Part shown: positions 4,385-43,817 of the stretch, in pieces
Layout of the letters: each line of letters opens with the position of its first letter
How positions within the stretch are numbered: the first letter of the stretch is position 1
IMG/VR virus record: IMGVR_UViG_3300042884_000704
Location: 1-44,364 of that record
Direction: 5' to 3' (one strand)
DNA from: a virus
Taxonomy: Duplodnaviria > Caudoviricetes
DNA length: 44,364 bases
Translations under genes and position numbers: made by a program
The notes under the pieces: model-generated
Database searches by the model: none
Seen by the model: the letters and a program-made list of their open reading frames with translations, nothing else
Told to the model about the DNA's origin: nothing

Positions 4385-5112
4385 TGATTTTACAAGTCGG
4401 GCCTGTCACACGGCCAAACAATGAAGCGGTGGTGGTCCCAAGCTACACTCCGATTTATGACTTGACCAGACGGGTCGAGGCGATGCGTATTCGTTGGGAA
4501 ATTACCGGGCGCGTGGTGAATTATCCGGTCGCAACGCAAGCGATCACTTCAACACAAATCAGAGAGCTTGAGGCTGCTTTCAAATCGACAAATCCAAGGT
4601 GTGCTTTGCTCGGGGATGATCGGTCTGCTACTCCATACTTGCTCGATCCAGGGCAATTGATGCAGGGTCCGTACTTGGTCGACTATTCGTTTCCAACCTC
4701 CGAGGCCGAAGTCTATGCGACCGGACTGGCGTATCGAGTCTCGATCGAGGGCGTTCAGTATGTCGGGACTGGTGGTACTGACCTGCTCGAGTTCTCGGAA
4801 GAGCTTACCGAGGATCCGGGCGGGACAACCTACGTTTATGTCGGTGGGGCGGTCAACCTTGCGGAGCGACAAGTGGCTTTTCAACAGAAGTCGTTCAAGT
4901 ACACTCAAAGCGGCTCGGCAACCGGACTGCTGGCCTATCCTGTGATTCCACCACCTATTTGGCCGTTCGCATTGCTCGGCGCTCCGAGACGCGTTCTGCA
5001 GAACCCGATTAACCAGGGTACGATCAATACTGGTTTCCCGGTAAGCTGGGAGTACAACTACGAGTGGCCAGTCAAACTCTACGGCGTTCCTCATCGAAAC
5101 AATCGAGGCTAA
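4384..5112 (+). CDS. putative distal tail protein
   Basis: TAATG-coupled directly after the tape measure gene; 242 aa, beta-rich. Confidence 0.55.
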   Translation: MILQVGPVTRPNNEAVVVPSYTPIYDLTRRVEAMRIRWEITGRVVNYPVATQAITSTQIRELEAAFKSTNPRCALLGDDRSATPYLLDPGQLMQGPYLVDYSFPTSEAEVYATGLAYRVSIEGVQYVGTGGTDLLEFSEELTEDPGGTTYVYVGGAVNLAERQVAFQQKSFKYTQSGSATGLLAYPVIPPPIWPFALLGAPRRVLQNPINQGTINTGFPVSWEYNYEWPVKLYGVPHRNNRG

Positions 5113-5115
5113 ATC

Positions 5116-6354
5116 ATGGCAACAAAATACTGGGTCGGTCGGGCTGCTTCGGTCACACAAATAACGAAGGTTGTTTTTTCTTCGATCGTTTCGACGAACA
5201 CGTATTCGGTGACGATCAACGGAAAGACCGTCAGTGCCGTGGCTGCATCAACCTCGCTCGGGGATCTGATCGACGCGTTGGTGAATGCCTGGAACAGTTC
5301 GGCAGAACCGGAACATCGGGAAATGGTCGCGGCTCGACGGGAGGATCCAACTCTGTCGGGCTTGCAACTGACCGGAACCAATCCAGGCGTACCATCGACT
5401 GTTACCGCGGCGGCAACGACCGGGACGGCAACGGTGACTCAACCTGCCGTGGCAAGCGGTCCGAACTTTTGGAACGTGGCCGGCAATTGGCTCGGTGGTA
5501 CTCTCCCCGCGGCGGCTGACGATATCGTGGTTCGAGATTCTTCGGTCTCGATCCTGTACGGGCTGACCGACACGAACAACTACGCAAGCCTGAAAATAGA
5601 ATCGAGCTTCACTGGGACGGTCGGACTCCCGGACACGAATGCAGTCGGGTATCCAGAATACCGAACCACGATGCTGACGCTTGGCACTGGATCAGCGATC
5701 GTGGTCGATCTTGGGTATGGAGTGGGTGCGTTCTCTGGACGCATTAGGCTCGATGTGCAGGGCTCTAACGTGACCTATACGGTCTCGGGCGCGGGGTCAA
5801 ACTTTGGTGCTGCGTTCCCGTTCGAGCTTCGCAATCCTGGGGCCGGATCGACTGTGCGAGTGTATGCCGGTGGGGTGCTAGTGAATTCCTCGACAACCGG
5901 TACCGTTGCGGCTCTTGATGTGATCCAACGCGATACCGTGGCGGCTGCGCCACAAGTAAGCATCATGCCGGAAATCACTTGCACAACGATCGAGGTCTAC
6001 GGTGGGACTCTATTGCTCGAAGGATCGGCAACGACGCTGATTGCTCGGGAGCGTGCTCAGGTGACGGTGGCAAGGTCTGCTGCGGTCGCGACGGTGAAGG
6101 TATCGAGTCAAGCTCGGATCAACTGGGATTCCTCGGGAGGCATCACAACGAAGCTCCATGTTGAACAGGCCGGTACGATTGACTTCGGGCGCGTCGGTAC
6201 TTCGAAGACCGTGGCTGCTTGTGATCTGTTTGCCGGGGGTTCGTTGCATGACCCATTGGACAACATCACGTTTACCGCTGGCGTGGTTCTCCAGGCGTGC
6301 AGAATATCCGATGTGACGATCGATCTAGGGGTCGGAGTGACGATCAATGGCTAA
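5116..6354 (+). CDS. tail/baseplate structural protein
   Basis: 412 aa T/G/V/A-rich beta-solenoid-like sequence; WNVAGNWLGGTLPAAADD motif typical of adhesin/passenger repeats. Confidence 0.6.
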   Translation: MATKYWVGRAASVTQITKVVFSSIVSTNTYSVTINGKTVSAVAASTSLGDLIDALVNAWNSSAEPEHREMVAARREDPTLSGLQLTGTNPGVPSTVTAAATTGTATVTQPAVASGPNFWNVAGNWLGGTLPAAADDIVVRDSSVSILYGLTDTNNYASLKIESSFTGTVGLPDTNAVGYPEYRTTMLTLGTGSAIVVDLGYGVGAFSGRIRLDVQGSNVTYTVSGAGSNFGAAFPFELRNPGAGSTVRVYAGGVLVNSSTTGTVAALDVIQRDTVAAAPQVSIMPEITCTTIEVYGGTLLLEGSATTLIARERAQVTVARSAAVATVKVSSQARINWDSSGGITTKLHVEQAGTIDFGRVGTSKTVAACDLFAGGSLHDPLDNITFTAGVVLQACRISDVTIDLGVGVTING

Positions 6355-12303: not shown

Positions 12304-13292
12304 TGGCAATTTGGGATCGGTATTTCGACGGATCGCTCGAGGCTGCAAAGCCGGATCGGGACCATCAGAAGGCGTTCGCTGCTCAGTCGATCGCTCCGCT
12401 ATACGCTGCGGCCGCACCGCGGGTGATGGACCGTGAACCCTCGAAAGATGTGTTCCTCGGTCGGTACGCGCTGCTCGGGATGCAAAGCCTGTACGGGAGA
12501 AAGTTCCAATGGTTCCCACAATACCAGGAGTACGGGACCTGCGTCGGGCAAAGCCATGCCGGGATCTTTACAATGGTCCTGGGGATCGGATCGCTTTTGA
12601 GTGGTCTGCGGTTTCCAGGTCGCGTCGCGGTCGCTCCGATCTACGGTGGTTCCCGAGTCGAGATCGGCAAAAACCCTGGACGTTGGGAGGGATCGGTTGG
12701 CTCTTGGGCTGCTCAGTGGGCGACCAAGTTCGGATGCGTTACGTTCCTGGAAATGGGACTCAACGATCATCCTGCTGACCGGAAGGAATGGCTGGCAACG
12801 ATGCGAGCCGACGAGACGCTGGCGATGAACTGGGCTGCGTCGAACTCTGGCGTTCCGGCCGAGTACGAAAAGCTGGCCAAGCTCAAGCCGATTACTCATG
12901 CCCCGTTGATCCAGACGGTTGACGAGGTGAAGGCTGCGCTGACGAACCTGACCCCGGTGAACGTATGCTCGAAGTGGCATCCCTCGCAGGACTGCGACGA
13001 CAAGGGGATCTGCAAGGGGTTCTCTCGAAGCGGTAGTCACTCGACGGCAATCATCGGCCAATACTTCGACGGTACCCGGTGGTGGTTCGATTTCCTGAAC
13101 TCATGGTGGTACTACTACAAAGGCGGGTTCTGCCGAACTGGAAACAAGCTCGACGCGCAGTTCAAAGGTTCGGTCTGTCGAATCTCCGAGAAGCAGTTGG
13201 CTGCATTGCTCTCGGATCGCGAGTTTTACGCGATGGTCGGAGTGCAAGGCCTGGAACCCATCGACAAGGAATACTCGCGGCTAATGGCCTAA
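12300..13292 (+). CDS. papain-like (C1 family) cysteine peptidase
   Basis: QEYGTCVG (oxyanion Gln and catalytic Cys), GSHSTAIIG (His), FLNSW (Asn). Confidence 0.8.
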   Translation: MMAIWDRYFDGSLEAAKPDRDHQKAFAAQSIAPLYAAAAPRVMDREPSKDVFLGRYALLGMQSLYGRKFQWFPQYQEYGTCVGQSHAGIFTMVLGIGSLLSGLRFPGRVAVAPIYGGSRVEIGKNPGRWEGSVGSWAAQWATKFGCVTFLEMGLNDHPADRKEWLATMRADETLAMNWAASNSGVPAEYEKLAKLKPITHAPLIQTVDEVKAALTNLTPVNVCSKWHPSQDCDDKGICKGFSRSGSHSTAIIGQYFDGTRWWFDFLNSWWYYYKGGFCRTGNKLDAQFKGSVCRISEKQLAALLSDREFYAMVGVQGLEPIDKEYSRLMA

Positions 13293-13307
13293 TTTGGCCG
13301 TTTAGCG

Positions 13308-13333
13308 GTTCCAAAATCCGAACGGGTGGCGTT
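13308..13333 (+). promoter_or_regulatory. GTT-N15-GTGGCGTT motif, copy 1
   Basis: Intergenic, directly upstream of the structured RNA region. Confidence 0.6.
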
Positions 13334-13342
13334 ATGATGTTT

Positions 13343-13750
13343 GGCGAGGGTTGGAATCCCTCGACGGCGTGGTGCTGGAACGAAAAGAGCCCAGGTTTCC
13401 CTAGGCTCTCTCGTTGGTTTTTGCGGACCTACCAGCACCGAGAATTGTAGCAAAGTGATCTGTCGAAACAAGCGACAAACTAGATCGGGACAAAACTCGG
13501 ATGAAAAATCTCGGAAGTGCTGTCTGCGTGTGTGCGTCGATTGCGAGGGCAGGGAGCTAGCGGCTGCGGTCCATACCGCAGAGGGATAGTCTCGGACGCA
13601 ATCTGAGGCGAGCCGGTTCGACCGGCGACTGGAAGGGGCTCGCACCCCCTGATTGGATTGGCTGCGTGGTAGCTAAATCCGGGCTCCGTCTAAGCTGACG
13701 ACCCGGTCCAGGACACCAAAAGACGCGGTCGGTTCGAGTCCCTGGGGGTC
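13343..13750 (+). ncRNA. candidate structured ncRNA
   Basis: No credible ORF; stems at 13345-13363, 13371-78/13432-39, 13386-91/13404-09, 13564-81, 13589-609, 13612-26, 13644-49/13744-49, 13660-67/13723-30, 13679-83/13702-06; strand inferred from the upstream motif. Confidence 0.5.
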
Positions 13751-19035: not shown

Positions 19036-19851
19036 ATGGGTTTTTCTAACGGGCAGGCTCACATCGGAGAGCCGATTGATTCGTACCACCTACGACCTGA
19101 ACTGTCTGCGAGCATGATTAAAACGCTGCTCGATTCACCGGAGATGTTTCACTGGCAGCACGTTCTAAATCGTCCTGCGGTCAAGCCGACCGACGCGATG
19201 GAACTCGGAACAGTGATCCATGAGGATCAACTGCTGGCAGTCTGGGAGCAGTCCTGGGTCGAGATTCCGGAGTCGGCGCTAAGCGGCAACGGCCACCGGC
19301 GCGGGGCAGCATGGGAGCAGTTCAAGCGTGAGAACAAAGGCAAGATCCTGCTCAAGTCCGATCAGATCGAAAAGATCAAGTGGATCCGAGAGGCGGTCGA
19401 ATCGAATCCGTTTGCGGCGAAGCTACTCGATGCGAGCAGTACGAACGCTCTGAACGAGATCACGATCACGGCCGATGCTCCGCTATCGGACGGCACAACT
19501 CAGGCGATGCGAGGGCGGCTCGACCGGCTGACGGATTTCGTCCTGGACTTCAAAACGATCAGCGACCTGGGCGAGCGAACGATCAAGTATCGACCGGTAG
19601 ACCATCGGTGGGATATCCAGGCCGTGAACTATCAATTGCTGGTCCAGTCGATTCGCGGCGGGTCGCTCCCTGATGTATACTTTATCGTAGTCGAGACAGC
19701 GGTCCCGTACCGTTGCGAGGTGATCTGTCCGTGTCAGCAAACGTTGGCGGCTGCTGCTCTGGTCCTGCAAGATGCGATTGAAGAAATCATCGAGCGAACC
19801 AAAAGCGGCAACTGGCATCGAACCGACTGGCCGGCTCCATTGATTTTTTAA
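19036..19851 (+). CDS. PD-(D/E)XK exonuclease (RecE/exonuclease VIII-like)
   Basis: YH...LSASMIK, AMELGTVIH, RGRLD...LDFKT, QAVNYQ, FIVVE. Confidence 0.85.
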   Translation: MGFSNGQAHIGEPIDSYHLRPELSASMIKTLLDSPEMFHWQHVLNRPAVKPTDAMELGTVIHEDQLLAVWEQSWVEIPESALSGNGHRRGAAWEQFKRENKGKILLKSDQIEKIKWIREAVESNPFAAKLLDASSTNALNEITITADAPLSDGTTQAMRGRLDRLTDFVLDFKTISDLGERTIKYRPVDHRWDIQAVNYQLLVQSIRGGSLPDVYFIVVETAVPYRCEVICPCQQTLAAAALVLQDAIEEIIERTKSGNWHRTDWPAPLIF

Positions 19852-19862
19852 GGAGGTCCAAA

Positions 19863-20186
19863 ATGAAGGACTTGAGTTTTGAGAAGGTGTTGCGTGACGA
19901 AGTTGAATCGTCGATCGAGGATATCGCTCTGTCGACGCGCAAGCGACCGATGGCCGCAGGGTCAAAGTTCGTGGACATTGTGATTCGCGTGGTCCGCAAG
20001 CTCGGCGCTGAGCAGTTAAAGAATCTCGACAAGGAAACGGCGTTGACCGTGGTCGGGACTGTCTACGATGATTTCGTGGCCAAGATCGATCTGCCGGGCG
20101 AGTACGATGTGATCATCCATGGACTGATTAAGCAGTCTGCTTTGGCTGCTCTTGCGATCGGCTACGATCAATTTATGAAAAAATAG
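19863..20186 (+). CDS. hypothetical protein
   Basis: AAGGAGG RBS. Confidence 0.65.
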   Translation: MKDLSFEKVLRDEVESSIEDIALSTRKRPMAAGSKFVDIVIRVVRKLGAEQLKNLDKETALTVVGTVYDDFVAKIDLPGEYDVIIHGLIKQSALAALAIGYDQFMKK

Positions 20187-20212
20187 TTGTCGGCCTTCGG
20201 TCGGTGGCGTTG
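20186..20212 (+). promoter_or_regulatory. GTT-N15-GTGGCGTTG motif, copy 7
   Basis: Intergenic. Confidence 0.65.
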
Positions 20213-20253
20213 TTTAGTTGAGAGTTTGTTTCTGTTCTCTAGGAGGTAGGTTT

Positions 20254-20688
20254 ATGAAGCGTTTCATTCTTGCAGGCTGGATGCTTGCTGTGTTGACGTT
20301 GCCAGCGCTCGGGCAAGTGTGCTCGAACGGTCAGTGTGCTTCGAGTCCATCGGATCGAGTGATCGGCTCGGTGGTTTCGGCTGCGGTCGAGATTCCGGTT
20401 CGAGTGGTCGAGCATGTGGTCTGCGAGGTTCAGCCTGTGCGGTCTGTGGTCTGTGCAAACGGACTGGCCCAATGGAAGGCAGAACGGCAGGCTGCAAGCG
20501 GTCGGCTGTATCACGTTGGCGGCGGCTTCAATGGCGGCTGTGCTGAGGGCGTGGGGTTCTCGACAAGCTCCCCGGACGCTGCGATTAAAAAGTGCTGCTA
20601 CTGGGGCCGAAAGCCTGTCCAGGAAATCGGCGTAGCGCGTGGCCGAAACGGATGGTACGCAACGGTAATTTACCGATCGAACTATTGA
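20254..20688 (+). CDS. secreted protein with CAP/SCP-like C-terminal region
   Basis: AGGAGG RBS; signal peptide MKRFILAGWMLAVLTLPALG; CSNGQC; HVGG..AEGVGF...IGVARGRNGWYAT. Confidence 0.6.
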   Translation: MKRFILAGWMLAVLTLPALGQVCSNGQCASSPSDRVIGSVVSAAVEIPVRVVEHVVCEVQPVRSVVCANGLAQWKAERQAASGRLYHVGGGFNGGCAEGVGFSTSSPDAAIKKCCYWGRKPVQEIGVARGRNGWYATVIYRSNY

Positions 20689-20694
20689 TCCATG

Positions 20695-20773
20695 CTCGGC
20701 AGTCGGAGGGAGAGGACCGGCTGTCGAGAATGAACGGTGCTCACGGACAGCACGCCGGACAAACGTAACCGGC
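20695..20773 (+). ncRNA. three-hairpin element with GGA-containing loops
   Basis: 12-bp stem with loop AGGGAGAGGA; 5-bp stem with loop CACGGAC; 5-bp GCCGG/CCGGC stem. Confidence 0.5.
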
Positions 20774-20779
20774 AAATAA

Positions 20780-20851
20780 TCCCTGTAAGTTTTGATGGCG
20801 AAACACCAAGCCTCGGCTTGGAGACGGAAGGTTCGAAGCCTTCACAGGGAA
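20780..20851 (+). ncRNA. tRNA-like RNA 1 (non-canonical anticodon loop)
   Basis: Acceptor TCCCTGT/ACAGGGA; D stem GTTT/AAAC; anticodon stem CCAAG/CTTGG with 6-nt loop CCTCGG; T arm GAAGG-TTCGAAG-CCTTC. Confidence 0.75.
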
Positions 20852-20853
20852 CT

Positions 20854-20966
20854 GGATCGGCGGCGTGGTGGCGACACGCGTGAGGTAGCAGCGAATCGAG
20901 TTCTGAGGACTGGCCGATGGCAGGAGCATTGCGATTCCTAGGCGGGTTTGAATCCTGCCCGATCCT
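20854..20966 (+). ncRNA. tRNA-like RNA 2 (expanded central domain)
   Basis: Acceptor GGATCGG/CCGATCC; D stem GCGT/ACGC; T arm GCGGG-TTTGAAT-CCTGC; about 60 nt in place of the anticodon and variable arms. Confidence 0.65.
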
Positions 20967-20969
20967 TTT

Positions 20970-21057
20970 GCCCCGGAAGTTATTGCGGAGGAACACGACG
21001 ACACGCGCCCTTAGGGTGAGCGGTTGCCGGGCGAGGGTCCGAATCCCTCTCGGGGCT
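20970..21057 (+). ncRNA. tRNA-like RNA 3 (elongated central stem)
   Basis: Acceptor GCCCCGG/TCGGGGC; T arm GAGGG-TCCGAAT-CCCTC; central hairpin capped GCCC-TTA-GGGT. Confidence 0.6.
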
Positions 21058-21068
21058 TTGGTTTTTTG

Positions 21069-21095
21069 GTTGTCGCTGCCGGTTCGGTGGCGTTG
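21069..21095 (+). promoter_or_regulatory. GTT-N15-GTGGCGTTG motif, copy 8
   Basis: Upstream of the ERF gene. Confidence 0.65.
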
Positions 21096-21127
21096 TATAG
21101 GTGGCTCCAATACGAAAGGGAAAAGCC

Positions 21128-21955
21128 ATGTTTCACTCAGAAAAGATAGACTTGCTGGCGGCTGCATTAGCGAAGTTTCACGCCGAGTGTCCAAAGATTA
21201 CCAAGGACACCAAGAACGACTATTTCAAGTCGAAATACGCCGATCTCGGAACCATCCTCGCGGTGGTCAATCCGGTTCTGGCAAATTGCGGTTTGTCGGT
21301 CGTTCAGATGCCGACGGGCGACAATATGCTGCAAACGCTGCTGCTACACCAGTCCGGCCAGTGGATCAAGGGCGAGAGCGTGATGCGACCGCTTGAGGCG
21401 GTGATTCGTCGTGATGCGAACAAGAACGATATTATGGGAATCACACCGCAGGCTCTAGGGTCTGCAATCACCTACCAGAGACGCTACGCGCTGGCTGCGA
21501 TTCTTAGCCTGTGCATCGATGACGACGACGACGGAAACGCTGCGTCTGCGACCGGCATGAAACCGGGCGACAAGGCGAGGTCGCAGCAACCAGTCGTCGA
21601 GCAGGAAACCAAGCCTGAAACCAAGCCACCGCCAGTCGAGCTTCTGACCGACGAAAAGATCAACGACATTATGGGTAAGCTACAGGCTGCTACCCTGGAT
21701 CAACTCCCGAAGATGGAAGCTGCGTTGTCGAACCATGGTATCCGTGGCGCGATCAAAAAGGATGACTGGTCGATTCTTGCGGCTGCAATGCTGGACCGTT
21801 GGTACACGGTTTCAACATCGGCTAAGGGACTCGGTGAAGTGGCGAATACGGTTGTGGCGTACCGATCGAAAGCCATACTGACCGACGAACAGTTCGCTAA
21901 GCTGACCGAAAAGTTCAAGACGCAACTCAATACCCTGACCCCTGAAAACGGATAG
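21128..21955 (+). CDS. erf: ERF-family single-strand annealing protein
   Basis: KDTKNDYFKSKYADL...GLSVVQ...LLHQSGQWI...PQALGSAITYQRRYALAAIL..DDDDGN. Confidence 0.9.
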   Translation: MFHSEKIDLLAAALAKFHAECPKITKDTKNDYFKSKYADLGTILAVVNPVLANCGLSVVQMPTGDNMLQTLLLHQSGQWIKGESVMRPLEAVIRRDANKNDIMGITPQALGSAITYQRRYALAAILSLCIDDDDDGNAASATGMKPGDKARSQQPVVEQETKPETKPPPVELLTDEKINDIMGKLQAATLDQLPKMEAALSNHGIRGAIKKDDWSILAAAMLDRWYTVSTSAKGLGEVANTVVAYRSKAILTDEQFAKLTEKFKTQLNTLTPENG

Positions 21956-21956
21956 C

Positions 21957-22262
21957 ATGACCGATTACGAAGTAATTTTGGCACTTACAAAGGCTGCGAT
22001 GCAAGCGTACATCATGGCCGATCCGAAGCTGGAATGGACGACGGAAGAAATCGCGGAGATGGCTGTCGACCAAGCTCTTGCCGTACAACTCGAATTGAAA
22101 CGAAGGAAAAATGACAAGCAAAAAAACAATAGCGACGAGCCTTTTGATTCTCGATCCAAGACTCCAATGTCGGGATTCGGTCCCGGAGGCTCTGATCAAA
22201 GAGTACGAGGACCTCTGGCGAGAAAAAGTGACTTTCCCACCGGTCCAGGCTTTCGAGGTTGA
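21957..22262 (+). CDS. possible small hypothetical protein
   Basis: Plausible first 50 aa, but overlaps the next gene by about 150 nt. Confidence 0.3.
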   Translation: MTDYEVILALTKAAMQAYIMADPKLEWTTEEIAEMAVDQALAVQLELKRRKNDKQKNNSDEPFDSRSKTPMSGFGPGGSDQRVRGPLARKSDFPTGPGFRG

Positions 22263-23019
22263 CGGTCAACTGCTGGTCGTCGATGGGTTCTGCCGAGTGC
22301 TTGCGGCGCAGAATGTCGGCAAATCCAGGATCGAAGCGACGGTGACGAAAGGTACTTTTCAGGATGCTTTGCGTGCTGCTTGCGGTGCGAATGCTTCACA
22401 CGGCCACCGAAGGACTCAAGCAGATAAACGCAAGGCTGCGGGAATTGCAATCGCAGAGTTCCCGGATGAAACGTCTCGCGTCTTGGCTGCGATGGTCGGC
22501 GTGAGTCACACCTATATCGTAAGCCTGCGAGAGAAGGACAAGAAGCTCGACGCGATCATCGAGCAGGCGGCTGCTGGCGTGGTCCCGGACTTGAACTCCG
22601 AGCCAAAGCCGAAGCGTGAGAAACCACCAGCCAAGGTCGATGCGGTGATTCCCGTATCGGGTTGGAAGTGCTCTGACTGTGCTGGCGTGACTCAAGTGCT
22701 GACCGACGGCGGGTACGCTTGCTCGGCGTGCCTGTGTCCGGTCGGTGATTCGGTGGCCGAACCTGAGAGCAATCCAGCGGTCGAACCTGCGGACCCTGAA
22801 ACGGACCTGGGCGACGAAGACCCGTTTGCTGATACCAATGAAAAACCAGGGAAAGAGCCTGGACCCTTGGAAACGTTTACAGACCCGGACCCTGAAAAGC
22901 TCGGTGCTGTGCATACCGCCTGGGGTCGATTCATCAGGGCGTGCGAGCAGGCAAATTGCAGTCATGCGATCAAGGTTGAAATCGAAGCGATGACGAAGAA
23001 GCTCAAAGGACTGCAATGA
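22111..23019 (+). CDS. ParB/Srx-domain protein with HTH and Zn-finger
   Basis: FPPVQAF..DGQLLVVDGFCRVLA; NASHGHRRT..DKR; HTH TSRVLAAMVGVSHTYI; CSDC...CSAC. Confidence 0.75.
   Translation: MTSKKTIATSLLILDPRLQCRDSVPEALIKEYEDLWREKVTFPPVQAFEVDGQLLVVDGFCRVLAAQNVGKSRIEATVTKGTFQDALRAACGANASHGHRRTQADKRKAAGIAIAEFPDETSRVLAAMVGVSHTYIVSLREKDKKLDAIIEQAAAGVVPDLNSEPKPKREKPPAKVDAVIPVSGWKCSDCAGVTQVLTDGGYACSACLCPVGDSVAEPESNPAVEPADPETDLGDEDPFADTNEKPGKEPGPLETFTDPDPEKLGAVHTAWGRFIRACEQANCSHAIKVEIEAMTKKLKGLQ
22868..22881. repeat. palindrome copy 5
   Basis: TGGAAACGTTTACA inside the ParB-like gene. Confidence 0.75.
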
Positions 23020-37977: not shown

Positions 37978-40900
37978 ATGGATCTGATCGTCGAAAAGAT
38001 GGCCGAGAGTAAAAGTCTAGTTGAATCCTGGGGCGAGGTCATCGATGTGACCGAGTTCATGACGGATTCGAGCGGGTTTTTCAATACGAATGGACTCGGT
38101 GCGTTCACCCAGATTTACGACCGGGCCGACGGTCGATACCGTCCAGTCTATACCAACGAGTCCGACCTGAAACTGATCCGGGCTATGTCCTGGCTGCTGG
38201 TCGAGAAGGTACCGATGGCTCAAGCCTGGGTGAACCGGCTGCTGGATTACACGATCGGGACCGGGTTCGACTGGACGATCAAGGCCGACGATAAACGGCT
38301 TGAGAAGGCGATCCAGTTGTACGTTCGGGAATCGCTCGACGTATCGAACTGGTCGACGGAACTCGAGCGTGAGTCCTACATGCGGGAGGTCGCTGACGGC
38401 GAGTTCATCGGTGAGCATATCTACGAAGACGGTCAGTGTATGGTCGTTTCTCGGGAGGCTGACGAGCTTACCGAACCGGCAATCAAAGGCGAACTGGAAG
38501 AATGGCTCGGGCTGGATTTCGTTCCGTCCTGGACGTTCGGCGTGCTGACGAAGGAATCCCTTCCGGAGCGACCAATCGGGTATCACTTCGTCCGAAACTC
38601 GGCTGGAACCGATTGGGATTACGTTCCTGCGGATCGCGTCTGCATGTGGAAGCGGAACGTACGATCGCGGGGCAAGCGTGGGTTCTCGGACTTCTACAAG
38701 CCGCACCTGTATCTGCTCCGGGCCGACCGGGTACTGACCAACACCGCAGAAGGGGCCGCTACTCAGGCTGCGATTGCGTATATCGTCGAGCACCGGGACG
38801 GAACGCAAAGGCAAGCCGATAACATCGTCAAGCGGTTCGCACCTCCGACCGGCAAGGTGGACCCGTTGACCGGGCTCGCACAACGACGGCGGCGAATGCT
38901 TCCGGGTACTCGGCTCGACGTTCCCGAGGGGCAGGCGTACAAGGCAGGTCTGCTCGGCTCGAACAACTCAGGGATCTACATCGAGGTCATGGAATCGGCT
39001 TTGAGGCTCGCTGGTTCGGTCCATGCGTTCGTCGAAGGGATGCTGACCGGTTCCTATGCGAACAACAACTTCGCGTCGGCTCTGGTCGCTGAGGGGCCGT
39101 TCATGCAGGGCCGGCTCGCAGAGCAGTCGCAACGCAAAGAGCGAATGCGGGATATGATCCTGAAAATAATCAAGCTCGGAGCGTCGAAGGGCCGGTTTCG
39201 ATCGGCCGGTTTCGATTCCTGGGATGCGGTCCGGGACCGGGTCACGGTCGAGGTCATTCCGTCGCGGATTATTCCGGTCGATCCACTCAAGACCGCACAA
39301 GCCCTGGCGATCCAAAAGCAGAACGGTTGGGTGTCGGACAAAACCTGCATCAACGAACTCGGACGGGATATCGATACCGAGACGGCAAACGGGCTCAAGG
39401 TCGGCGGCGCTGAGAAGCAAGCCGGGGCCGATGGTCAACCTGGGGCTGCTGGTCCTGCTGCTGGCCAGGACGGGAATCCTGTAAACGTTTCCAAGAATCC
39501 GGAGCCAGAATCCTCACTTTGGCTGGGATTATCGCGTCAACAGTGGCAACGGAACCGCAAGGCCGTGAGCGATGTGCTGACGGATTTCGCAGACGGAAAG
39601 ACCCGGCGTTCGGTCGCGGTCGCTCTGCTGCGTGCTATCGGGATGCCGGAGCAAGGGATCCAAACGATCCTTCGGGATGCGTCAGACGGGCAGATCGATT
39701 CGCTACCACCAGAGCAGATGGAATCTGTCCAGGAGGCCGAGAGAAAAACACTCAACCGTCCCTTTCGTACGTCGAATGGTCCTAAGAAATTTGCGGTCTA
39801 CGTCAAGAACGAAAAAGGGAACGTGATCCGGCTCGGCTTCGGTGATCCGAAGATGAAAATCAAGCGGGACAATCCAGGAAGCCGGCGCGGGTTTCGGGCT
39901 CGGCATAACTGCCAAGACCCAGGGCCGAAGTACAAGGCTCGATACTGGTCCTGTCGGTTCTGGTCGAAGCCAAGCGTCTCGAAACTTCTGCGCGAGTCGG
40001 TCGAGGAATTCATTCCATGGGACGGCAAGACGTTCGTTCGGGAGTCGTGGCTACTGAAAACAAATCCGCGATTGCAGGAGGCGTTCTGTGCAACCGGCAA
40101 GAAGGGTGGCGTAAAGAACGACTGCCCACCGAAACGGACACCAAAGGCACCGGCAAAACCAAAATTCGTATCAAGCGACCGGGAACGGAATCTTGAAAAC
40201 GACAAGGTCATCAACGGCATGTTGGCAATGTTCAACGATGCAGATATGGCAGGGCTGCAATCCGTCGAGCATCCAAGTCCAAAGGTGATGGAATACTCAA
40301 AGGCCCTTCAAAGGGCGTTGCACGCGTCGGGCGTGAAGGGTGGAAATCCGATCGACCTGTTCGGCTCTAGCTCTGCAATGCACCAACGCGGCGGCGTGTG
40401 GACCGATGAGCGTCGTGAGCTGCACGCTGAAATCTACGACAAGCTGCTGACCGGAGCGGAACCTGTGAGCAATCCTGTGTTCGTTCTGCTTGGCGGTGGA
40501 TCGGCATCCGGAAAGAGCACCCTGACGGCTGGTGGTTTGGCTGAAATCCCTGGATCGATCGTTCGAGTGGATTCGGACCAAATAAAAGCAATGCTGCCGG
40601 AATACGCGGAAGCAAGCGGCAAGGATGCTAGGGCTGCGGCGTTCGTGCATGACGAGTCTGCTTACATGGCCAAGGAGCTTGCTGCAATCGCGTCTGGCCG
40701 TGGCTACAACACAATGCTGGACGGAACTGGCAACGGATCCGAAGGTGGCTTGGCTGGCAAAGTTGGGATCGCTAGGGATCGCGGGATGAAGGTGGTCGCA
40801 GTCTATGCAACGACCGACCTGGACACCGCATTGAAACGAAACGCTGAACGTGCAAAAACCGACGGTCGGATGGTCCCCAATTCGTTCCTGCGATACTCTC

Positions 40901-41073
40901 ATTCGCAGGTCAGCGCGTTGTTCCCTCGGTTCGTTGCAAACGGGAGCTTCGATGAGGCTCACCTGTACGACACGACCGGGGATGCCAAGAAGATTGCAAC
41001 GTATCAAAACGGATCGCTCGAGGTTCACGATCCAAAGGCGTACCGGAAGTTTTTAGATAAGGCAGGTCGCTAA
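37978..41073 (+). CDS. portal protein fused to C-terminal cargo domains including a Zeta/PezT-like P-loop kinase
   Basis: aa 1-475 portal-like (REVADGEFI, PIGYHF, VPADRV, RGFSD, NFASALVAE); basic KKFAVYVK..FGD..FRARHNC..ARYWSC domain; GGGSASGKS, VDSDQIK, HDES, LDGT, GRMVP. Confidence 0.8.
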   Translation: MDLIVEKMAESKSLVESWGEVIDVTEFMTDSSGFFNTNGLGAFTQIYDRADGRYRPVYTNESDLKLIRAMSWLLVEKVPMAQAWVNRLLDYTIGTGFDWTIKADDKRLEKAIQLYVRESLDVSNWSTELERESYMREVADGEFIGEHIYEDGQCMVVSREADELTEPAIKGELEEWLGLDFVPSWTFGVLTKESLPERPIGYHFVRNSAGTDWDYVPADRVCMWKRNVRSRGKRGFSDFYKPHLYLLRADRVLTNTAEGAATQAAIAYIVEHRDGTQRQADNIVKRFAPPTGKVDPLTGLAQRRRRMLPGTRLDVPEGQAYKAGLLGSNNSGIYIEVMESALRLAGSVHAFVEGMLTGSYANNNFASALVAEGPFMQGRLAEQSQRKERMRDMILKIIKLGASKGRFRSAGFDSWDAVRDRVTVEVIPSRIIPVDPLKTAQALAIQKQNGWVSDKTCINELGRDIDTETANGLKVGGAEKQAGADGQPGAAGPAAGQDGNPVNVSKNPEPESSLWLGLSRQQWQRNRKAVSDVLTDFADGKTRRSVAVALLRAIGMPEQGIQTILRDASDGQIDSLPPEQMESVQEAERKTLNRPFRTSNGPKKFAVYVKNEKGNVIRLGFGDPKMKIKRDNPGSRRGFRARHNCQDPGPKYKARYWSCRFWSKPSVSKLLRESVEEFIPWDGKTFVRESWLLKTNPRLQEAFCATGKKGGVKNDCPPKRTPKAPAKPKFVSSDRERNLENDKVINGMLAMFNDADMAGLQSVEHPSPKVMEYSKALQRALHASGVKGGNPIDLFGSSSAMHQRGGVWTDERRELHAEIYDKLLTGAEPVSNPVFVLLGGGSASGKSTLTAGGLAEIPGSIVRVDSDQIKAMLPEYAEASGKDARAAAFVHDESAYMAKELAAIASGRGYNTMLDGTGNGSEGGLAGKVGIARDRGMKVVAVYATTDLDTALKRNAERAKTDGRMVPNSFLRYSHSQVSALFPRFVANGSFDEAHLYDTTGDAKKIATYQNGSLEVHDPKAYRKFLDKAGR
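39480..39493. repeat. palindrome copy 8
   Basis: TGTAAACGTTTCCA in the portal linker. Confidence 0.75.
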
Positions 41074-43817
41074 TGCTTACCGTCGAAAATGCAGCGTCGA
41101 TCATGGCTGCTGTCCAACTTGGTCAACAGTTGCCAATCAACACGCCAGAAGCGCTTGCGATGGCTGAACAACTCCGAGAAGAAATCGCGGCGTTTCCTCC
41201 CGGCGTGGAAGTCGAAATACCGGGCGAGTGGAGCATCGAGGAAAAGCCTGAACTGATGCAGGAAATGCGTTCTGCAAAAAGGCAACGTCTGCGCGAAGCA
41301 TTGATCGCTTCGAGCGGGTATCGACTGATCGAGTCGGTTATGGACTCAATCATGCCGGGTGGCGCTGACCACTGGAAAGGACAGCCAAGAGCAAAGGACG
41401 GAAAGTGGATCGACAGCGGTGTGAATTACAGCAAATGGCCATCACAAAACAGTGCTGCCAACTCGCACAAAAAGAAAATCAAGCTGCTGGAAAAGCTGGT
41501 TGCAAATGGCGAGTACGAAGAGTTCTTGAAGTTGCAGCCTATTATCAAGTCCAAGTCCCCAAACAGCTATCAGAAAGGACTAGCGAAAGCGTGGGAGAAC
41601 CTGCATGAAATCGTTAAGCAATCGATGCAAGCCCCACCAAAAGGTGCGGTCAAAGTCCCTGGTACAATCGCTCTGGCTGGCTGGTCTAAGATTGGAGGAT
41701 CGCTCGGGACCGAGAAGGGTGGGACGTACATCGGTCCAGACGGTGCGAAATACTACGTCAAGACACCAGACAATCCGGCTCGCGCGCACAATGAAGTCCT
41801 GGCATTTAAGCTCTATGAATTGGCCGGTGGGAGCGTTGTTGAGGCTCACTTAGTTCAAGTCGAGGGAAAGACTGGCATCGCGACAAAGTGGATGAACGAT
41901 GCCGAATCTCTTAAGTGGACGGCTGGGGATAAAGTCGCGGCATCCTCGGACTTTGCGTTGCACGCGTGGCTGAACAATTGGGACGCAATCGGGGCTGGCT
42001 CAGAAAATCCAATGGACAACATTAAGCTGTCCGAGGGAAATCTCAAGCTGGTCGATGCTGGTGGATCGCTGGACTATTCCGGCATGGGCGGATCCGGCAA
42101 GAAAATGTTCACAAACGAAGCAAACGAGTGGGACACGCTGCGCGACCCAAAAGTTAACAAAACAATGGCTCAAGTTTTCGGAGGAATGACCGACAAGCAG
42201 CTAGTTGATTCCGTTTCAAAACTTCACAACGTTGGCTACAACGACATTCACGAAATGGTCTGGGAGTATCACCCAGGAACCGGCGATGAAAAAAACAAAA
42301 TGGTTGACACCCTGGTCGACAGGAGAAACTCAATCATTGCTAAAGGCTTGGCCATCCAATCAAAACTCGACAAGGCTGCAAAAGCTGCAGGGGAGTCCTG
42401 GGTCGATTCAATGATTTCGCAAGCGGTCGGATCAAAGGCTGACGAGGCACCTGTAATAATTTCAAGTGTTGCTTCCAAGGGCGAACCAATACCACCACCG
42501 CCAGCGTCGTTTGTCGCGTCAACCAAAACCAAAACGCTGCCACCGCCACCAATCATAACCAGTGCAACAAATCAGTCTGTCCAAGCAAAAATCAACGCTC
42601 TGTACAACGCTGCAAAGTCTGGAAACATTGCAAGCCTGAACGCGATTTCTACCAACCCGGCTGCAATTCAAACCTACTCGAAAAAAGCTCACGCCTACAA
42701 ACAGCAACTCTTAGCAGCAATGCAAGATGGTGCAACCGCGAACCCTGAGCACGTTGTTCCAGTGTCGCAACCTACGGCCGATTTTGGGGCAGCTAAGGCA
42801 TCGGAGAAGGCTGCTGCTGCTTCGGTCGCTCAAGCCGATGAAATGCTCAAGTCCGACGGCAAGAAGGTTCCAAAGGGTCTGTTCTCGCAGCCTCCGACGT
42901 TCCAAGGCTCAAAGACCGAAGTGAACAATGCTTCGGCAGAGAAGATTTTGCAGTTGGCTCGGTCCAGCGACAAGGAAGGTATCCAAGCGGTCGACGTTCC
43001 AGACGGGACAAAAATCGGGGAGTTCAAAAAGAAAATCCTCTCCGAAATTGACCAGATACCTGAGAAAAAAGCAGCGTACCAAAAACAAAAAGCTGAGGCG
43101 CAAGCGGCTCAGGCAAAAGCAAAAGCCGAGCAAGAAAAGGCGGCTGCTGAGTTTAAGCAGAAGTACGGCGATGATTTCTTTTCAGCAGCAAAGGCGCTGA
43201 CCAAATCCAACACGGTTACCAAGTCGGTCGGTTGGTGGAACATCACACACGAAAACATTCCTGTCCCTCATGTGCCTGCAAATGTGCAAGCAGGACCAGA
43301 GCGACACGTACTGATGGCTAAAGGTTACGAGGCTTACGAAAAAGCACCCACGGCTGTGCAAAATGCAATCAAAAAATTTACTGGTTCGTATTCTGGAACC
43401 ATCAATAACGATATGGTTTCCACAAAAGGTGATCCTAAATCGGCCCTTGCAAAAAACGCAGCTAAAGCGTTGGAAAAATACAGCGTCGATTTGCCGGAAG
43501 GAATGTTCCTGTCCAGGAAGTATTCCTATAGCACTGGTCCTGGGAAGCACTTAGTCCCTGGTCAAGTGATTTTTTCCGATACCATTCACTCGACTTCGGT
43601 TGACCCTGATGTTTGGTCTGGAAGCACACACATGCACATCACCATCGGAAAAGGAGTTAAAGGACTTCCGGCTGAGCACTTTTCTAGCCACAAGTCCGAA
43701 AAAGAGGTTGTGATGGGTGCAGGCCAAAGGTACGTCGTGACCAAATACGAACCGCCAGATTCGAGCGGAATCGATCGGATTTACGTTTTGGCGCTGCCCA
43801 CTGGCGGCGTTGACTAG
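41073..43817 (+). CDS. polyvalent head-associated protein: PI3/4K-HipA-like kinase plus VIP2/Alt-like ADP-ribosyltransferase
   Basis: QPRAKDGKW motif; kinase YYVK..NEVLA..LY, WLNNWD, DN, LVDAGGSL; ART FTG...IN, LSRK, STS, EKE. Confidence 0.75.
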   Translation: MLTVENAASIMAAVQLGQQLPINTPEALAMAEQLREEIAAFPPGVEVEIPGEWSIEEKPELMQEMRSAKRQRLREALIASSGYRLIESVMDSIMPGGADHWKGQPRAKDGKWIDSGVNYSKWPSQNSAANSHKKKIKLLEKLVANGEYEEFLKLQPIIKSKSPNSYQKGLAKAWENLHEIVKQSMQAPPKGAVKVPGTIALAGWSKIGGSLGTEKGGTYIGPDGAKYYVKTPDNPARAHNEVLAFKLYELAGGSVVEAHLVQVEGKTGIATKWMNDAESLKWTAGDKVAASSDFALHAWLNNWDAIGAGSENPMDNIKLSEGNLKLVDAGGSLDYSGMGGSGKKMFTNEANEWDTLRDPKVNKTMAQVFGGMTDKQLVDSVSKLHNVGYNDIHEMVWEYHPGTGDEKNKMVDTLVDRRNSIIAKGLAIQSKLDKAAKAAGESWVDSMISQAVGSKADEAPVIISSVASKGEPIPPPPASFVASTKTKTLPPPPIITSATNQSVQAKINALYNAAKSGNIASLNAISTNPAAIQTYSKKAHAYKQQLLAAMQDGATANPEHVVPVSQPTADFGAAKASEKAAAASVAQADEMLKSDGKKVPKGLFSQPPTFQGSKTEVNNASAEKILQLARSSDKEGIQAVDVPDGTKIGEFKKKILSEIDQIPEKKAAYQKQKAEAQAAQAKAKAEQEKAAAEFKQKYGDDFFSAAKALTKSNTVTKSVGWWNITHENIPVPHVPANVQAGPERHVLMAKGYEAYEKAPTAVQNAIKKFTGSYSGTINNDMVSTKGDPKSALAKNAAKALEKYSVDLPEGMFLSRKYSYSTGPGKHLVPGQVIFSDTIHSTSVDPDVWSGSTHMHITIGKGVKGLPAEHFSSHKSEKEVVMGAGQRYVVTKYEPPDSSGIDRIYVLALPTGGVD

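Follow-up and report, generated by a model that had tools for sequence, protein, structure and literature searches.

Small tRNA-like stable RNAs of phages T5 and T4 are still annotated without a known function. In the GenBank record of T5 (AY543070), RNA2 and RNA1 are both entered as 'tRNA-like stable RNA with unknown functions', and species 1 and 2 of T4 are described as small stable RNAs of its tRNA operon (PMC2330249). For the engineered tRNA scaffold of Ponchon and Dardel (PMC3753655) it is reported that three arms are kept and that an insert in the place of the anticodon arm is processed and protected. Irregular tRNA or allo-tRNA polycistrons are reported to be tandem, include some RNAs that are charged without use in translation and lie near toxin-antitoxin genes (Mukai et al., PMC5389517), and tRNA arrays with variable spacers hold a variable part of similar size between the tRNAs and have linked nucleases (Altae-Tran et al., PMC10910872). 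Here we describe a tandem array of three tRNA-shaped units in a window of 44,364 bases, which is a whole virus record from position 1 to its end.

Geometry and detection of the three units

The array occupies a 440-base gap between the ORF 20251-20688 and the start of an ERF gene at 21128. Its elements and neighbors are:

20251..20688, + strand: upstream ORF with an N-terminal hydrophobic stretch; shell arrays follow its homologues
20690..20774, + strand: upstream structured RNA cassette with a long hairpin, a variable hairpin and a terminal GCCGG/CCGGC hairpin (z -3.0)
20780-20850 plus N73 A20851, + strand: U1, 5-bp anticodon stem and 6-nt loop CCTCGG; T loop TTCGAAG
20854-20965 plus T20966, + strand: U2, a shell of the GGATCGG type with acceptor stem, 5-bp D stem and T loop TTTGAAT
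20880-20941, + strand: 62-nt insert inside the U2 shell
20970-21056 plus T21057, + strand: U3, with a 34-nt arm (20996-21029) capped by TTA in place of the anticodon arm; T loop TCCGAAT
21057..21096, + strand: U-rich trailer with one TCGGTGGCGTTGT copy (21084-21096), from sequence reading and a motif scan
21128..21955, + strand: ERF-family single-strand annealing protein (PF04404, E 5.7e-21)
13879, 14995, 16533, 17514, 18765, 20201, 21084, 31110, 33355 and 36254, + strand: TCGGTGGCGTTGT copies, from a motif scan

An earlier note had described three units 2-3 nt apart, and its geometry was confirmed: the gaps are 2 nt (U1-U2) and 3 nt (U2-U3), and each unit has a 7-bp acceptor stem, GG in the D loop and a 5-bp T stem with a 7-nt loop. 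All three show the cloverleaf frame and the 7/5 acceptor-T branch of canonical tRNA (RF00005). The arm contents were also read correctly as a 6-nt loop, an insert of about 60 nt and a long TTA-capped stem, measured here as 6 nt, 62 nt and a 34-nt arm. The loop of U1 folds as a tetraloop closed by C-G. A 7-nt anticodon loop with U33 and a purine at 37 is found in none of the three units, and none encodes CCA. The elbow is imperfect in the window, with U at position 56 of U2 and C at position 55 of U3.

A frame scan of both strands of the window returned exactly three frames, which are U1, U2 and U3, and the same scan on 200 dinucleotide shuffles returned none. Of the checks proposed earlier, ARAGORN called U1 alone, as tRNA-???, passing over U2 and U3 and finding no canonical tRNA in the window genome, and Rfam gave no tRNA, YrlA or tmRNA match at E<=10 over 19500-22500. 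With blastn against INPHARED phages only short T-arm or hairpin matches were obtained. Folded alone, U1 forms a cloverleaf (z -4.6), while U2 (z +1.1) and U3 (z +0.4) are no better than shuffles, although adopting the tRNA frame costs U2 only 1.8 and U3 only 1.1 kcal/mol relative to the minimum.

The marks of tmRNA are absent, as the 3:70 pairs are C-G, A-U and C-G with no G3-U70, D stems are present, and both ARAGORN and Rfam were negative. Hammerhead and bulge-helix-bulge readings were rejected by eye. YrlA carries a permuted tRNA-like domain on a Ro60-binding stem; the suggested YrlA or Y-RNA scaffold is not supported, given that the units have no Rfam match, are not permuted, end in a normal acceptor stem, and are accompanied by no TROVE/Ro60 protein among 50 ORFs. 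A decoy for anticodon nucleases, also put forward, finds no support, the anticodon loop being the very part that is missing.

Genome setting and the upstream cassette

A Pfam scan of 50 ORFs of the window (with some small ORFs left out) identified, among others, a tail tube, a terminase, a portal, a helicase, a DUF3799 nuclease and the ERF annealing protein. The ERF protein is, from its context, a candidate agent of cassette exchange; a search with it returned no related viral loci. The upstream ORF has zero matches in Pfam or PHROG. The motif TCGGTGGCGTTGT occurs in 10 copies in the window with at most one mismatch, where 0.07 are expected, all of them on the + strand. The copies that were inspected lie downstream of T-rich or hairpin stretches and upstream of gene starts, and the motif is likely to be a promoter, operator or terminator element of a module. 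The trailer at 21057..21096 likely marks the end of the transcription module.

Elsewhere in the window, a stretch on the + strand (13288-13368) appears by eye to be a possible fourth, degenerate tRNA-like remnant, with a 6-bp acceptor-like stem, a T-stem sequence identical to that of U3 and a Trp-like loop. At 37978-41073 a zeta-toxin/AAA_33 kinase-like domain is fused to a portal protein; the large protein that follows it (41073-43817) has an ADP-ribosyltransferase domain at its C terminus.

A conserved structured RNA stands just 5' of the array, a point that the earlier note had missed. This upstream cassette shows two-sided changes in 11 of 24 predicted pairs (10 sequences) and is found before at least four shell types in different phages, and its terminal hairpin is also present in two phages of enterobacteria. 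The stretches that carry this hairpin, in Klebsiella phage UPM 2146 (L210:650-1800) and Escherichia phage Bas82 (L209:1200-1490), are unannotated, and the former locus also scores weakly as tmRNA-like (E 0.15), with a frame resembling a tag.

Relatives of U1 and U3

At 19 viral loci with the upstream gene, most hold tRNA-shaped units at the equivalent place, in varying order, and the first slot is in some relatives a different tRNA-like unit with a Met(CAU) loop. A scan for U1 gave two true matches out of seven. In the three U1 relatives found (L002, L127 and L312) the 6-nt loop is kept, and in two it reads CUUCGG, a UUCG tetraloop closed by C-G. The loop of the host tRNA-Arg(UCG) is CUUCGG plus one A, and may possibly have been the origin of the U1-type loop.

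The U3 family comprises 28 distinct copies, with the acceptor stem 97% paired and the T stem 100%. The value of 94% for its anticodon stem is inflated, the register having been picked for maximal pairing. Arm loops range from 4 to 29 nt, GNRA loops cap 3 of the 28 types, and a canonical anticodon loop is present in none. Intact tRNAs, which together with random decay in this genome would have spoken against the earlier note, are thus not what these U1 and U3 relatives carry. Among 14 aligned copies, two-sided changes affect 7 of 15 pairs, a covariation score reached by 0 of 500 shuffles, a control that kinship among the sequences can inflate. Compensatory changes preserve the acceptor, D and T stems across U3 homologues. 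T loops of the form TTCRA and the D-loop GG are kept in U3 shells, the exception being the window's own U55C, and one relative has only 5 of 7 acceptor pairs. The proposed selection for shape with loss of decoding is supported by the covariation of the U3 type and of the U2 D stem and by the lack of a canonical loop in the 28 U3 types. The three-unit array is a genuine, selected, non-decoding RNA array.

The U2 shell family

A pattern for the 3' half of U2 matched 67 viral, 85 metagenome and 7 genome stretches. From 179 sequences, the GGATCGG-type family comprises 110 distinct units with 72 families of interiors, or inserts, a count that includes one visibly mis-paired 253-nt unit; a looser tally, with rows not checked singly, gives 162 units and 109 families. 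A scan with a 5'-half pattern, which places no selection on the 3' half of the unit, gave 62 matches. Of these, 36 have a strict T arm together with an acceptor strand able to pair, 21 of them new, and in these 36 the T-stem variants remain paired. Among the other 26, at least five have an imperfect frame and many resemble chance matches in coding DNA. By its sequence, U2 represents a single slot in a family of cassettes whose inserts are exchanged, which had escaped the earlier note.

Since the acceptor sequence is set by the search patterns, its invariance is no evidence. The D stem shows two-sided changes at four of five pairs (20 sequences). In the T loop, U54 (84/94), purine 57 (94/94) and A58 (89/94) are kept, and the elbow is relaxed at U55 (45/94), C56 (62/94) and the D-loop GG (28/49). 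The claim that stems and elbow are retained therefore holds for the stems and finds no support for the elbow of the U2 shells, and processing enzymes could recognize these shells less well as a result. Of the 21 newly found units, 10 have A at N73, 9 have U and 2 have G, a variability that argues for the absence of a fixed aminoacylation identity. Reading the kept and varied positions by the identity rules of tRNA, we infer that the top half may be held for processing enzymes and not for a synthetase or the ribosome.

Among tRNA-sized interiors of GGATCGG shells, a canonical-like loop is present in 2 of 13. One GGATCGG shell in a 204-kb phage (L017:4984-5058, G564) has a canonical-looking loop with a UCA anticodon and U73; ARAGORN calls it tRNA-SeC, Rfam scores it as tRNA with 55.7 bits, and it is possibly an opal-reading tRNA. 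Further shell types occur in the arrays of L330, L005, L008 and L009; their inserts are long, and their acceptor sequences differ but still pair. Rfam on 18 loci gave only tRNA matches over the cut-off.

Inserts and their reassortment

Inserts in U2 shells reach about 150 nt; U1 and several U3 types carry none. The predicted closing helix of the window insert (20893-20898 with 20932-20937) is common to its homologues L266 and L308, which have in addition a GAGA-capped hairpin absent from the window. Folded alone, the window insert is worse than shuffles (z +1.7). Over the 23 of 72 families with a recognizable D arm and an insert of at least 45 nt, three odd units being excluded, the mean z was -0.33 and 1 of 23 fell below -2. 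That the inserts fold no better than shuffles limits any claim of compact folds for all of them. One insert family shows two-sided changes at 7 of 33 pairs, including a pseudoknot pair to the D loop that was assigned from the alignment of that family, which speaks for selection on its structure; two further families, with 0 of 34 and 1 of 41, have sequences too alike to tell. At E<=1, neither the inserts nor the spacers of 20 loci matched an Rfam family. No long insert match, and so no host source, was found in 401 Pirellulales genomes, and the one match to an exact 17-mer of the U2 insert was judged to be chance.

One and the same insert occurs in different surroundings. For 65 unit pairs with a common insert, the upstream context was shared by 10, the downstream context by 8 and the T loop by 20. 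Each of 15 upstream 9-mers stands before two or more insert families, and one spacer is found between different shells in L017, L064 and L055. Three large phages have 5-9 U2-model matches per genome. RecT, ERF, Sak4 and SSB genes are frequent neighbors of the arrays, and no constant partner gene stood beside them among the neighborhoods examined. Many arrays have several shells with no ORF between, and some frame protein genes. In L009 two protein genes are placed between shells (4616-4819 and 4967-5638); the 67-aa one of the two has no Pfam or PDB match, and for this reason we do not label it as anti-defence.

Short repeats, even diverged ones, are substrates for recombination by annealing proteins. 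Swaps among U2 units would be explained by crossovers within the shell arms, and changes of linker need shorter homology. The near-identical shell arms, of about 15 and 27 nt, are probably the crossover sites for the phage annealing protein.

Likely host and proposed RNA maturation

We infer that the host is probably a planctomycete. The shell pattern occurs in one Pirellulaceae and one Pirellula bin (two of seven genome matches), the contig of the first being also listed as viral, and among 94 homologues of the upstream protein one carries a Gemmataceae name. In the sampled host genomes a GGATCGG shell was found only on one contig that is also listed as viral (1/101 by model), and the other pattern matches in host genomes lack the T arm.

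CCA is encoded in none of 27 tRNAs of the likely hosts (two Pirellulaceae bins, G001 and G002; 27 of 71 matches), which suggests that these hosts add it post-transcriptionally. Host tRNA trailers often start with CT or TT, as in the array units. The lack of an encoded CCA, correct as an observation in the earlier note, loses its value as an argument, since the likely-host tRNAs lack it too. Among five Pirellulaceae-family genomes (G001, G002, G051, G143, G183), RNase P RNA was matched in all, with 4 over the cut-off, all have a gene of the PolyA_pol/CCA family, and none has an RNase Z over the NCBIfam cut-off. The units are plausible as the RNase P/Z processing signals advanced earlier.

A reassorted set of non-decoding shells

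The outer frames are constant and the inserts many, so that the array probably serves as a set of small stable RNAs that is reshuffled and that may act as decoys against defences of the host. We give about an even chance to the reading in which the units are non-decoding tRNA shells whose interiors are swapped between phages and which mature into stable RNAs with inserts that bind host proteins as decoys. It takes as observed the frames and their covariation, the absence of an anticodon loop and the way in which inserts and spacers are reassorted, and adds the following steps. The module would very probably be transcribed as a single early RNA. It is quite likely that RNase P would cut before each acceptor stem, that the U-rich trailers would be trimmed and CCA added, and that the upstream cassette would be freed as well. 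The host CCA-adding enzyme would tail the shells after RNase P, and the shells would stabilize the folded inserts. The short-armed U1 and U3 may be cut signals or mimics of the top half of tRNA. That the inserts are protein ligands in a conflict with the host falls somewhat short of an even chance, and is drawn solely from their diversity, turnover and position. Against this reading stand the unremarkable stability of the inserts, the lack of an RNase Z over the cut-off, the relaxed elbow of U2 and the lack of a dedicated partner protein, and also U1 and several U3 types, which have no insert to carry.

Those insert-less units could instead point to the top half alone, with CCA-ended mimics titrating host enzymes that act on the acceptor stem, T arm and CCA tail, and inserts serving as filler that anticodon nucleases cannot cut. 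U1 and 3 of 28 U3 types indeed have plain tetraloop caps and no cargo, and the TTCRA T loops and D-loop GG are retained in U3 shells; filler, however, needs neither compensatory changes nor a pseudoknot, nor dozens of distinct families of up to about 150 nt, and we consider this explanation unlikely. The shells could also be only the cut signals and recombination repeats of an early transcript, with inserts and spacers as passengers inactive in trans. The position of arrays among recombination genes, the protein genes that they sometimes frame and the shuffle-like folding of most inserts agree with such a role, which the covariation within one insert family and in the upstream cassette, together with the many multi-shell arrays that have no ORF between shells, makes rather improbable.

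The C4 RNA of phage P1 is an antisense regulator carried on an RNase P substrate. Inserts of this kind would suit the partly unstructured interiors and the early-region position, but with the + strand of the window the U2 insert has no perfect complement longer than 10 nt and the U3 arm none longer than 9 nt, which is at chance level, the shuffle mean being about 10, and neither a long insert match in the 401 Pirellulales genomes nor an Rfam C4 match was found, which leaves an antisense role highly improbable. tRNA pseudogenes in decay, or tRNAs from which introns are removed, would account for a few near-normal GGATCGG shells (the 2 of 13 tRNA-sized interiors), for the T-loop substitutions in U2 and U3 of the window and for the U3 relative with 5 of 7 acceptor pairs, but this reading has very little probability left and is largely refuted by compensatory changes across all stems, by identical non-canonical arms that recur in several phages and by the fact that U2 or U3 minus the insert, judged by eye, leaves no 7-nt loop containing U33.

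Extending the preferred reading of swapped, matured shells, planctomycete phages might run an integron-like RNA arsenal, in which the shell would be maturation signal, stabilizer and crossover site for more than 100 folded inserts, each of which would inhibit a host defence or RNA-binding protein or act as its decoy; we regard this as a tentative idea, and a doubtful one at present. If true, it would explain T5 RNA1/RNA2 and T4 species 1 as well, and anti-defence inserts would represent a large pool of RNA inhibitors that for the most part escapes Rfam and tRNA finders. As one shell occurs with many inserts and some shells are empty, the question of shell function versus insert function is directly testable.

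Comparison with known systems

A covariance model built from 20 U2 shells, whose E-values are rough, was run on the T5 genome (121,750 bases), where its sole match was RNA2 (24.7 bits, E 0.0014 over the whole genome). Its score for RNA1 is weak (E 0.052). U2 has the layout of these RNAs, with acceptor, D and T arms and an insert that replaces the anticodon arm. Like U2, RNA2 has an acceptor stem, CG at 8-9 and a D stem of 5 bp; its insert measures about 70 nt and its T arm reads GCAGG-TTCGAAT-CCTG. It differs in the sequences of insert and acceptor, the latter being left unaligned in the model match. T5 RNA1 and RNA2 lie among canonical tRNAs, whereas the window array is tandem and its genome has no cluster of canonical tRNAs, although arrays of some relatives hold Met(CAU)-loop or near-normal units. 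T4 species 1 and 2 (rnaC and rnaD) are comparable as small stable RNAs of a tRNA operon, and rnaC ends in a T arm; however, its model match is not significant (E 0.11, level with a host tRNA-Tyr), and rnaD has no such T arm. The RNA2 match places the array in the same kind as T5 RNA1/RNA2 and T4 species 1.

Allo-tRNA polycistrons are likewise tandem and irregular, but the RNAs tested there carry anticodons and frequently show an 8/4 branch, whereas the phage-borne units are 7/5 and lack an anticodon loop; no 8/4 or 9/3 branch, and no irregular tRNA with an anticodon, is present in the window array. In the arrays of Altae-Tran et al., tRNA units similarly serve as repeats around variable sequence, but here the variable part is also inside the shell, its sizes vary and there is no constant partner protein. 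The literature searched, mostly without subscription papers, contains no description of this shell family, although the 10,006 candidate models of PMC10690425 may include some of these shells or cassettes and the supplements of PMC10690425 and PMC10910872 may bear on its novelty. The kind is already known; what appears to be new, as judged by sequence comparison, is that dozens of inserts are exchanged within one shell in tandem arrays. Dozens of unrelated inserts share one shell sequence here, a difference from T5. The engineered scaffold of Ponchon and Dardel has in these phage shells, known here from their sequences, natural versions that are reassorted.
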